A DNA stretch of 64,000 nt from positions 192,408 through 256,407 of the forward strand of contig CAWATY010000007.1 of assembly GCA_963785115.1 (NCBI GenBank). The letters run 5' to 3'. The translations under genes and the position numbers were made by a program. The notes under the pieces are model-generated. The model saw only the letters and a program-made list of their open reading frames with translations. It ran no database searches and had not been told where the DNA came from. Source of the DNA: an uncultured Actinomycetota bacterium. GTDB taxonomy: Bacteria > Actinomycetota > Actinomycetes > Propionibacteriales > Nocardioidaceae. This document shows positions 13,566 to 14,981 of the stretch, piece by piece; positions within the stretch are counted from its first letter, which is position 1; each line of letters starts with the position of its first letter.

Positions 13566-13605
13566 GTGGACCAACCGGTGGACGGACGGTGGACGACGCG
13601 TGGAC
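13566..13605 (-). promoter_or_regulatory. array of four phased GTCCAC boxes (plus-strand GTGGAC at 13566, 13578, 13589, 13600)
   Basis: Spacing between boxes is 12, 11 and 11 bp. The proximal box reads GGTCCACAG and starts 80 bp from the boundary of the 331-bp unit. Looser boxes GTGGAG (13663) and GTGGAA (13687) lie further out. Confidence 0.5.
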
Positions 13606-13739
13606 GGCGACGCGCGACGTTGCAGCAGCGCAGGTCATGGGCGCGCGGACCGTCGGTCGGCTGTGGAGACCGGCTGCCCACAAGCTGTGGAATCTGGGCA
13701 GAATCGCGCGGCGTTGCCGTCTCAGATGTTGGACATCGG

Positions 13740-14306
13740 TCAGCGCCGATCGACGTCCTGGCCGGACGCGAGGTCGCCGCACTCGACCTCGACGACGTCG
13801 CGTCCGGCGAGGTAGCCGCGGGCGCCGGCATCACCGCTGGCGGTGTCGGCCACGACCTGCCAGTGCGCGCGGCCGAGCAGCACCGGATGGCCCGGCCGGC
13901 CGTCGTAGACGGCGCGCGCCAACACGTCCGAACTGGCGGTCGCTGCAACCCTGGTCAGCACCTCAGCGCCGACGTCGGGGAGGTCGACCAGGTGCACGAG
14001 GGCGGCGACCGCCTCCGGCGCCAGCTGGTCGAGACCGGTCAGCCCGGCACGCAGCGAGGCGCCCATCCCGTCGGCCCAGTCGGCGGCGACGACGAGGTCG
14101 GTGCCGCTGCCCTCCAGCAGGTCGCGCACCTCGTCGGCGGCCGCCCCCGCCACCACCCGGACGGTGTCGCACCCCCCGGCGTGCAGGACCGCGACCGCCC
14201 GCTCCACCCAGGAGTGCCCGTCGTCGGCACGCAGCAGCGCCTTGGGCCCGCCCATCCGGCGCCCGGCGCCGGCGGCGAGCAGCAGTCCCACGACCCGGCC
14301 GTCCAC
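13740..14306 (-). CDS. MobA-like NTP-transferase family protein (molybdenum cofactor cytidylyltransferase MocA type)
   Basis: VDGRVVGLLLAAGAGRRMGGPKALL...WVERAVAVL...VVAGAAADEV...GMGASLRAGL...LVDLPDV...GHPVLL. Confidence 0.82.
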   Translation of the reverse strand: MDGRVVGLLLAAGAGRRMGGPKALLRADDGHSWVERAVAVLHAGGCDTVRVVAGAAADEVRDLLEGSGTDLVVAADWADGMGASLRAGLTGLDQLAPEAVAALVHLVDLPDVGAEVLTRVAATASSDVLARAVYDGRPGHPVLLGRAHWQVVADTASGDAGARGYLAGRDVVEVECGDLASGQDVDRR

Positions 14307-14423
14307 CCGGCCGAGCCTGCCAGAGGTCCCAGACGGCCCCAGACGGCCCCAGTTGGACTAAACCGCCCCGACACGCCGCAACACGTCCGCCGCACGTTCA
14401 CCGACAGCCGGTAGACATAGCAG

Positions 14424-14754
14424 AGGCCCCTCCAAGTATGAGTTGGAGGGGCCTCGCCTTCGCGTGTGCCGCACCCGCGCTGCCGGCAAGCCGACCGCAC
14501 GGATGCTCGGGGATGACGCCCCGCCACGACCCTGCCATCCGGCCACCGAAGTGACCGGGACGCCGAGCCAGTGGTGCACCGCCCGATCAGGTCCTCGCGA
14601 GCCCGACGCCTCGTCATCAGCGCCGCCATCCGGGTCGCCCCAGATGAATGGCCCGTCGGTGTCCCGACCGGTCCGCCGACGGCTTCGTTGCGACTCCACG
14701 ACCGAGTCTCCCCGGCTGCTTCACCGCCACTTCCCCGTTGGCGTGAGCAGGACA
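14424..14754 (-). ncRNA. candidate structured ncRNA, copy 2 (identical to 13156-13486)
   Basis: Base-for-base identical to copy 1 by my manual alignment (offset 1268 bp). A TAGTGT -10-like hexamer sits at the upstream boundary. The terminal hairpin is at 14424-14454. Confidence 0.45.
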
Positions 14755-14832
14755 CTAGACCCGCGGATCGGCGTCCGGGAGCCGGATCCGCAGATTCCCC
14801 GCAGCCGCTCCGCGCGGCGTCACCGACGGGCT

Positions 14833-14861
14833 GTGGACCGGCCGGTGGACGACCGGTGGAC
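14833..14861 (-). promoter_or_regulatory. array of three phased GTCCAC boxes (plus-strand GTGGAC at 14833, 14845, 14856) plus a distal box at 14913
   Basis: Spacing is 12 and 11 bp. The proximal box reads GGTCCACAG and starts 79 bp from the boundary of the 331-bp unit, essentially the same offset as in copy 1. Confidence 0.5.
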
Positions 14862-14981
14862 GACCACGTCGCTGCGTCGGCGTGACCTTGGGGACGGCAC
14901 CCTGCACACCCTGTGGACGACGCACCAGAACTGATCCGACCGTCGTCCCACCTGTCGAGACGGACGCCGGACACACGAACG

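Follow-up and report, generated by a model that had tools for sequence, protein, structure and literature searches.

Phased arrays of DnaA-box-like sites upstream of a family of structured small RNA genes in Actinomycetota

We analyzed a 64-kb stretch of DNA from an uncultured Nocardioidaceae bacterium (contig CAWATY010000007.1; below, the window) in which two arrays of GTGGAC boxes (GTCCAC on the minus strand) each precede a 331-bp unit. The two units, at 13156-13486 and 14424-14754, are 100% identical and are minus-strand genes for a structured RNA of ~327 nt, a point that the original prediction, made from the letters of the window, had not recognized. The arrays are probably a DnaA-binding module placed upstream of a structured small RNA (sRNA) gene, which would couple sRNA transcription to DnaA. 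The boxes are helically phased and conserved, they are associated exclusively with a family of such RNA genes, and they are of the type found at oriC and at dnaA promoters.

On the plus strand, GTGGAC starts at 13566, 13578, 13589, and 13600 in the array of copy 1 (spacing of 12, 11, and 11 bp) and at 14833, 14845, and 14856 in that of copy 2 (12 and 11 bp), with another at 14913. All the starts originally predicted were recovered, and so was the helical phasing of the boxes at 11 to 12 bp. Among the three extra boxes proposed, the one at 14913 is a full GTGGAC, while the sequences at 13663 and 13687 read GTGGAG and GTGGAA and retain the GTGGA core only. Read on the minus strand, the proximal boxes are TGGTCCACAGG and CGGTCCACAGC, and the distances to the boundary of the respective unit are 80 and 79 bp; this common offset, also predicted earlier, holds because the units are identical over exactly the intervals given above. 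The triple pattern GTGGAC-N5/6-GTGGAC-N5/6-GTGGAC matched in the 64 kb only at 13566/13578 and 14833, and in 0 of 100 dinucleotide-preserving shuffles, so the arrays are not due to chance. The GTGGAC hexamer alone was not enriched in the window (52 observed versus ~69 expected). For DnaA boxes we used the consensus TTGTCCACA (actinobacterial) or TTATNCACA (general), and ten minus-strand 9-mers in the window score 6 to 8 out of 9 against it. In a 9-mer scan at ≥7/9 the two arrays were the top clusters; the lenient score (≥6/9) also picked GTCGAC-rich coding regions at ~32.3, 53.6, and 54.5 kb, which are codon artefacts and not box clusters. The box elements of the window are the following.

13565..13607, minus strand: proximal phased array of copy 1, four DnaA-box-like 9-mers at a spacing of 12, 11, and 11 bp, matching TTGTCCACA as TGGTCCACA 8/9, CCGTCCACC 6/9, TCGTCCACC 7/9, and CCGTCCACG 6/9
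13662..13694, minus strand: distal boxes of copy 1, GTCTCCACA at 13662-13670 and the head-to-head pair ATTCCACAgctTGTGGGC at 13676-13693
14832..14863, minus strand: proximal phased array of copy 2, CGGTCCACA 7/9, TCGTCCACC 7/9, and again TCGTCCACC 7/9, at a spacing of 12 and 11 bp
14887..14920, minus strand: distal elements of copy 2, a degenerate box CCGTCCCCAAG at 14887-14897 and the head-to-head pair CGTCCACAgggTGTGCAG at 14902-14919

The head-to-head pair of copy 2 includes TCGTCCACA, which matches the DnaA box at 8/9. Relative to the predicted RNA start, the proximal arrays extend from about -88 to -130, and the distal boxes lie ~185 to 215 bp upstream.

That the units encode an RNA follows from their folding and its conservation. 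The minus-strand unit folds far better than its shuffles (z = -5.3), and in an alignment of nine long-form sequences, copy 1 with 8 relatives, compensatory changes affect 40 of the 87 predicted pairs, a covariation that supports the fold. The RNA ends in a long 3' hairpin, GGCCCCUCCAA-CUCAUAC-UUGGAGGGGCC. Its 5' and 3' ends and its promoters are predictions, with the following elements.

13151..13477, minus strand: structured sRNA gene copy 1, ~327 nt, predicted start near 13477
13155-13187, minus strand: terminator-like 3' hairpin of copy 1, GAGGCCCCTCCAA-CUCAUAC-UUGGAGGGGCCUU
13484..13514, minus strand: predicted promoter of copy 1, -10 TACTGT at 13484-13489 and -35-like TTGCCA at 13509-13514, separated by a 19-nt spacer
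13515..13538, minus strand: spacer core GCTGCAGGAAAGTCTGCGAAGTCC, just upstream of the copy-1 -35
14419..14745, minus strand: structured sRNA gene copy 2, located between groEL and the mobA-like gene; hairpin at 14423-14455
14752..14757, minus strand: predicted -10 of copy 2, TAGTGT, with no good -35 visible

The copy-1 -10 aligns with TAGTGT, TAATGT, and TAGAAAT of the relatives, directly before the conserved 5' end CUCACGCC. A scan of 12900-15100 for a consensus promoter plus terminator returned nothing, and the promoter was recognized only through the relatives. The common spacer core that had been noticed between array and unit is indeed present; most family members have an A-rich tract, AAAAgaatcttGAAAtt, just upstream of the -35, to which this core seems to correspond in degenerate form. 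Rfam 15 gave nothing at the gathering score for the window or for 23 related loci, and at lower thresholds (E ≤ 10 for the window stretch, E ≤ 1 for five loci) it gave chance-level matches only (E = 0.59 to 4.5). We also considered whether the units are Ms1 or 6S RNA, which they resemble in that the RNA is likewise structured, actinobacterial, 180 to 340 nt long, and equipped with a strong promoter and its own terminator. This identity was rejected: the units are unrelated to the published Ms1 sequence of Mycobacterium smegmatis and the scr3559 sequence of Streptomyces coelicolor, the synteny with a HAD-hydrolase gene is absent, and the predicted fold is multibranched rather than a rod with a central bubble.

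By its mobA-like protein the window belongs to Nocardioidaceae, and three related contigs, L001, L002, and L003, were used for comparison of the orthologous loci. The closest, L001 (90% protein identity), carries both RNA copies. L002 and L003 (~70% protein identity) carry a single one, flanked by the mobA-like gene and the gene that follows it. L002 lacks copy 2, its 135-bp gap leaving no room for it, and in L003 a blastn comparison between groEL and the mobA-like gene did not find it. Since L002 and L003 have one copy, copy 2 arose by a recent duplication of the entire ~560-bp segment, promoter and RNA together. The original prediction had pointed to an operator conserved between two paralogous loci; the two loci do share the boxes, but, since the segment was duplicated so recently, this is weak evidence by itself, and the strong evidence of conservation comes from the orthologues and the wider RNA family. 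The boxes are kept in the related Nocardioidaceae (the copy-1 proximal array in all of L001 to L003) though the RNA is only 74 to 82% identical and the spacers between the boxes diverge. Conserved islands in all six aligned upstream regions are an invariant TCCACA-N3-TGTG, a further TCCACA, and the proximal pair RTCCACC-N5-RTCCACAGG, which keeps its 12-bp spacing in all six. The first base of the box varies in these regions (G, A, or T), while TCCAC(A/C) is constant. The idea that each unit is preceded by an operator-like element, dedicated and conserved, was thereby upheld, both in the orthologues and across the RNA family.

The 3' hairpin was used as a probe for that family because it is identical in all the orthologous loci. 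A scan of metagenomes gave 54 loci, and a scan that covered a single genome for each species and put no constraint on the five inner pairs of the stem gave at least 120; altogether, the hairpin with the loop CUCAUAC was recovered from >170 loci across Actinomycetota. The carriers include Nocardioides, Aeromicrobium, Kribbella, Propionibacteriaceae, Phycicoccus, Ornithinibacter, Nostocoides, Agrococcus, and Frankiaceae, as well as Jatrophihabitantaceae, Geodermatophilaceae, Jiangellaceae, Streptosporangiaceae, Nanopelagicales, and many uncultured lineages. Neither Mycobacterium nor Corynebacterium was among the matches listed in the genome scan, and the sole Streptomyces-labelled record among them (L177) carries a Kribbella-type sequence. 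The hairpin was absent from viral contigs. Its free stem positions covary (TCCAA/TTGGA, TCCAT/ATGGA, GGGAA/TTCCC, TCAAA/TTTGA, TGCAT/ATGCA, and TCCGA/TCGGA), and a ten-sequence alignment of the short form showed compensatory changes in 24 of 53 pairs. The RNA lengths cluster at ~180 to 195, 209 to 224, 240 to 267, and 323 to 342 nt, and in 97 unique genes the promoter is near invariant (TTG(T/C)GC, 17 to 18 nt, TAGAAAT). An RNA of ~830 nt in L067 (Phycicoccus sp. Soil802) and L090 keeps the usual promoter and both ends, the 3' hairpin included, but owes its size to numerous repeated hairpins with UUCG or GNRA caps; it extends the family range to between ~170 and ~830 nt.

The invariant loop CUCAUAC (window copies and L004 to L177) is built like the anticodon loop of a tRNA, with C32, U33, the anticodon CAU, A37, and C38, and tops a stem of 13 to 16 bp, the inner pairs of which covary freely. 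An invariant 7-nt loop on freely covarying pairs suggests that the loop is a recognition element and not just part of a terminator. By eye, no convincing complementarity of the loop to the dnaA and rpmH start regions was found. About a dozen of the hairpins are plain terminators after protein genes, without boxes or the RNA promoter; they follow adenosine-deaminase-like open reading frames (ORFs) in L062, L075, L105, L113, L123, L129, L148, and L169 and DsbA-like ORFs in L106, L130, and L142. Since GGCCCC-N5-CUCAUAC-N5-GGGGCC also occurs after coding genes, it is a reusable 3' module that is not exclusive to the sRNA. In one locus (L047) the loop reads GUAUGAG instead of CUCAUAC, with the stem and flanks in the usual orientation, which could be an inversion or an assembly artefact.

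The boxes accompany the RNA genes of this family. At least three same-orientation GTGGA/TCCAC cores were present within 140 nt upstream in 105 of the 180 hairpin instances with enough upstream sequence (58%), versus 52 of 3,000 control windows (1.7%). The fetched DNA (1.32 Mb) contains 69 phased triple arrays, all of them no more than 950 nt away from an RNA hairpin; in viral contigs the fixed 12/12 array pattern gave only unrelated matches, which, with several matches adjoining one another, are apparently 12-nt tandem repeats in coding regions. In the commonest layout, five TGTGGAY boxes and one GGGGATAAC box occupy fixed positions and are followed by the A-rich tract and the near-invariant promoter. 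In 74 unique modules the boxes stand at -44, -32, -20, +21, and +32 relative to GGGGAYAA, and the -10 of the promoter is at +86 or +96/97 from that same box. Adjacent boxes are 12 bp (90 cases), 11 bp (48 cases), or 41 to 42 bp apart, so that all the sites fall on one face of the helix. The module consensus reads cTGTGGAy-5-(t/g)GTGGAy-4-CGGTGGAyA ... CgGGGGATAAC in its upstream part and cTGTGGA-5-TGTGGAc-gcaAAAgaatcttGAAAtt ... CTTGyGC-17/18-TAGAAATT in its downstream part, and the alignment has a footprint-like pattern of conserved boxes and free spacers. In the long-RNA subfamily (the Nocardioidaceae long form, including the window, Ornithinibacter, and Nostocoides), the same module is inverted as a block: one ...CACA box comes first, then ...CACC boxes, next a GTCCCC variant, and finally one more box and a head-to-head pair.

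Tandem pairs of the RNA genes are common across the family. Where the two genes are widely spaced (700 to 1,300 bp; e.g., L018, L020, L025, L036, and L043), a box module precedes each, while in close pairs (300 to 410 bp; L005, L145, L163, L168, and L176) the module precedes the first gene only and the second has just the promoter. Judging from these box-less tandem copies with the same promoter, the promoter would be intrinsically competent.

The detailed sequence of the boxes points to DnaA. The high-affinity DnaA box of Mycobacterium tuberculosis and S. coelicolor is TTGTCCACA, and that of Escherichia coli is TTATCCACA (PMC4285127). When the flanks of 383 module boxes were compared with those of background GTGGA, T at -1 had a frequency of 0.66 versus 0.12, Y at +5 of 0.88 versus 0.54, and A at +6 of 0.47 versus 0.12, giving the box consensus cTGTGGAY(A/G)(A/G), the reverse complement of TTRTCCACA. 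Of the perfect TGTGGAYAA matches, 15 fall in the 244 kb that lie within 700 nt of the hairpins and 2 in the remaining 1,074 kb, an enrichment of ~33-fold. The likeness to the actinobacterial DnaA box that had been noted at the outset thus extends from the partial matches in the window to perfect 9-mers in the relatives (TGTGGACAA, TGTGGATAA, TTGTGCACA, and TTATGCACA). Where the boxes vary, they do so at positions that DnaA tolerates: in the unbiased module alignment position 5 is G or C and never A (giving TCCACA or TGCACA), and at position 3 any of G, A, and T can stand. Kribbella illustrates this with TTATGCACA-N5-TGTGCATAA, Phycicoccus with TTGTGCACA-GGGG-TGTGCACAA and TGTGGACAA, and Aeromicrobium with ATCCACAGCTGTGGAC and TGTGGACAA.

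Origin regions, located via the neighboring rpmH, were compared for one Nostocoides (the same assembly as the RNA locus L087) and for two members of Streptosporangiaceae, in which the common module is also present at the family level. In the spacers dnaA-dnaN and dnaA-rpmH of these genomes there are head-to-head pairs with a 3-nt gap (TTGTCCACAtggTGTGGATAA and ATCCACAtgtTGTGCAC), a direct repeat with an 11-bp period (CTTCCACAAtcTTGTCCACAccTTGTGCGCG), and, as odd variants, TTGGGGATAAG / TTATCCCCA as well as TTGTCCCCG. Across the spacers of the three genomes TGTG[GC]AY is 14-fold enriched, and GGGGAYAA occurs 4 times, versus once in the other 50 kb of the loci. The TCCACA-N3-TGTG arrangement of the copy-1 distal boxes recurs in the dnaA promoter spacers of related genomes, and the variants GTCCCC and GGGGAC (compare the distal elements of copy 2) are also present in their oriC, as is the odd variant GGGGATAA, common to the modules and oriC. 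The box types of the RNA modules are the same as those at oriC and dnaA promoters of related genomes, and the boxes at the RNA loci are most likely DnaA boxes.

Several observations weigh against this reading. The assignment to DnaA comes entirely from sequence comparison, and the window boxes themselves match at only 6 to 8 of 9 positions, most of them lacking TT at positions 1 and 2 and ending in C rather than A. The oriC and dnaA promoter of M. tuberculosis are also bound by the response regulator MtrA (PMC4285127), so co-occurrence of a box type at oriC does not single out DnaA. The inversion of the module relative to the promoter in the window subfamily would be an unusual arrangement for an activator of the classical, RNA polymerase-contacting kind, and since some box-less tandem copies keep the same strong promoter, promoter function as such does not depend on the boxes. 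One subfamily, here called type B (L076, L077 with two copies, L102 with two copies, and L136), has no GTGGA boxes; its upstream repeats are GACACGCC-GAC-GACACGCC with GTCACA-like elements, and in L045 GTCACAG elements take the place of the boxes. Thus, either the regulator is not the same everywhere or its specificity drifts. The type-B repeats suggest that the upstream regulator was swapped in this lineage; GACAC is the WhiA motif. The upstream order in type B is GTCAC..TTGTCACAC followed by an 11-bp direct repeat, GACACGCCGAC-GACACGCC.

From the sequence comparison we infer DnaA binding, oligomerization, and an effect on transcription at the RNA loci, which could proceed as follows. DnaA would first occupy the best boxes, namely, the ...CACA "anchor" boxes and the head-to-head pair, and would then spread cooperatively along the weaker ...CACC boxes, which recur every 11 to 12 bp on one helix face. 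Arrays of low-affinity sites at oriC are filled by the same anchor-then-spread route. The DnaA oligomer would change the output of the sRNA promoter ~80 bp downstream, and the RNA level would follow the amount or the nucleotide state of DnaA, i.e., the replication status. As to the direction of the effect, we lean slightly toward activation because the boxes lie wholly upstream of the promoter, as in sda of Bacillus subtilis, the promoter of which is activated by DnaA. A bolder extension, which we regard as rather doubtful, is that the DnaA-box module and the RNA form an undescribed replication-coupled circuit across much of the phylum, in which DnaA occupancy would set the level of an abundant RNA that acts on a core process. 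The RNA might then act on translation initiation, RNA turnover, or replication, perhaps by sequestering a protein.

The boxes might bind DnaA while the locus serves mainly to manage DnaA itself, as a sink or a regeneration site, with the RNA promoter modulating the occupancy or merely being a neighbor. Such a role would suit the fixed geometry of five to seven boxes, helically phased and comprising anchor as well as weak sites, a module that works in either orientation relative to the RNA gene, and a promoter that does not need the boxes, as the box-less tandem copies indicate. However, in the 1.32 Mb of flanking DNA the arrays never occur away from an RNA gene of this family, the distance from GGGGAYAA to the -10 is tightly kept at the two values given above, and known sinks are not tied to one gene family. 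The fixed promoter distance and the exclusive link to the RNA genes favor a promoter-directed function, and we consider the sink unlikely. A second replication origin was rejected, since the context is against it: the neighbors are groEL, mobA-like, and GNAT genes, and the window spacer is GC rich. No dnaA was found in the window or in any fetched locus and no dnaN was found nearby, while the relatives have a classical oriC elsewhere (that of Nostocoides is on another contig than the RNA locus). The GC skew of the 64 kb is weak and noisy; its shallow cumulative minimum falls in the 12001-16000 bin, which holds the arrays, with an amplitude of ~0.05 that is within the noise.

The original prediction had leaned toward an operator for a regulator of the OmpR/PhoB family. 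Such a regulator could be of the MtrA, PhoP, or GlnR type and would bind as dimers to the 11-bp direct repeats. The proximal arrays are direct repeats with an 11- to 12-bp period, the PhoP repeat of M. tuberculosis, TCACAGC, is similar to the boxes, and the elements that replace the boxes in L045 and the type-B subfamily are GTCACA-like. The MtrA site GTCACAGCG (PMC4285127) differs from GTCCACAGC by one extra base; compared with the MtrA box GTCACAgcg, the window boxes have an extra C (GTCCACagc). The PHO box, specifically, was rejected: the third base is C in every window box, and the diagnostic base that would make the core GTTCAC (A in place of the bracketed base of GTG[G]AC) has a frequency of 0 to 0.02 in five boxes of 66 independent modules. 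Against the family as a whole speak the head-to-head pairs, atypical of response-regulator direct repeats; the conservation that reaches over a 9-mer with A/T-rich tails, as in DnaA boxes; the occurrence of perfect TTGTCCACA and TTATNCACA 9-mers and the sharing of GGGGATAA with oriC; and the absence of any linked two-component or phosphate gene from the window and the fetched loci. The OmpR/PhoB reading therefore did not survive in its PHO-box form, and in its general form it is quite improbable. Slightly less probable still is an upstream activating region for some abundant DNA-binding or nucleoid protein, with the likeness to DnaA boxes being coincidental or reflecting competition. The arrangement of a near-consensus promoter, an A-rich tract at about -40 to -60, and phased sites at about -77 to -155 does parallel rrn P1, and the E. 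coli rRNA P1 promoters have Fis sites plus an UP element upstream. We know of no protein with this specificity in Actinomycetota, though, and the match to DnaA boxes is detailed and common to oriC and dnaA promoters. Binding of DnaA in the service of the sRNA promoter is, on this balance, the explanation we prefer.

On the minus strand the locus runs groEL, its terminator hairpin, boxes, RNA copy 2, the mobA-like nucleotidyltransferase gene, boxes, and RNA copy 1, after which a convergent GNAT gene follows. A palindrome lies upstream of both box regions.

13717..13736, minus strand: palindrome remnant of copy 1, reading GTCCAACATCTGAGAC, just past the stop codon of the mobA-like gene
14943..14963, minus strand: palindrome GTCTCG...GAGAC of copy 2, CGTCTCGACAGGTGGGACG, at the upstream end of the duplicated segment

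The palindrome GTCTCG-N5/6-TGAGAC is kept in L001 to L003, L016, and L099. In the long-RNA subfamily it stands 60 to 70 bp upstream of the distal boxes, and one arm has decayed in both window copies; the palindrome might bind a further protein or form a short hairpin at which the upstream gene terminates. XdhC/CoxI-type and VWA/CoxE-type accessory genes adjoin the locus, and a DUF222 gene lies beyond a LacI-family regulator by groEL (window positions 8527-11065 and 17989-19887); the XdhC/CoxE neighborhood has partial synteny in L002. Elsewhere in the window there are a S-adenosylmethionine (SAM) riboswitch (RF00162, 73.6 bits) at 34024-34144 on the minus strand, upstream of the minus-strand ORF 32726-34078, and a tRNA-Thr(TGT) gene at 47284-47357 on the minus strand.

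DnaA initiates replication and regulates a few protein-coding genes, and clusters of DnaA boxes and DnaA-controlled promoters are already known. What is seen here is a fixed DnaA-type module attached to one RNA-gene family in Nocardioidaceae, Kribbellaceae, Propionibacteriaceae, Intrasporangiaceae, Streptosporangiaceae, Frankiaceae, and others. In the open-access literature we found no multi-box module of fixed layout that is linked, throughout a phylum, to a single family of structured RNAs, and nothing relevant on the hairpin sequence, on DnaA boxes upstream of actinobacterial sRNAs, or on TGTGGAC repeats. If DnaA binds, replication status would be linked to an RNA regulator that has escaped annotation, likely because the RNA is not among the matches listed for Streptomyces proper, Mycobacterium, and Corynebacterium. 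The array also offers a natural "anchor plus weak-site" system in which DnaA oligomerization could be studied outside the origin, the RNA locus is a directly testable regulon member, and the new RNA family, with >100 sequences, is ready for a covariance model.

Among known systems, DnaA-regulated promoters come close: in dnaA autoregulation there are likewise clustered DnaA boxes beside a promoter, and the head-to-head pair with a 3-nt gap is as in actinobacterial dnaA-rpmH spacers. Other promoters under DnaA control are those of B. subtilis sda, E. coli nrdAB, and Caulobacter gcrA. Unlike in these, the target here is a noncoding structured RNA, and the module has five to seven boxes in a fixed phased geometry, is kept in many families throughout a phylum, and can be turned around as one block. 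In its layout it is also similar to E. coli rRNA promoters with their UP element and phased Fis sites. With the PHO box and other OmpR/PhoB operators and with the MtrA box GTCACAGCG it shares direct repeats of an 11-bp period, but the core differs from the PHO box at an invariant position and from the MtrA box by an extra base, and inverted pairs and 9-mer conservation are present here. The low-affinity DnaA arrays of E. coli oriC are R1-tau-I and R4-C (PMC4285127). As in oriC arrays, same-orientation 9-mers lie 2 to 3 bp apart with an 11- to 12-bp period, a ...CACA anchor preceding weaker ...CACC sites; in contrast to them, the RNA locus is not at the origin, has no dnaA or dnaN near it, and in its window version is without an AT-rich unwinding element. 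Clusters of DnaA boxes away from oriC are represented by datA and DARS1/2 of E. coli, the DnaA-box clusters (DBCs) of B. subtilis, and D78 of Streptomyces. The modules described here are likewise DnaA-box-type clusters away from oriC; however, those sites are single loci per genome with no known tie to one gene family, whereas here each cluster stands at a set distance from an sRNA promoter and has been duplicated together with it.

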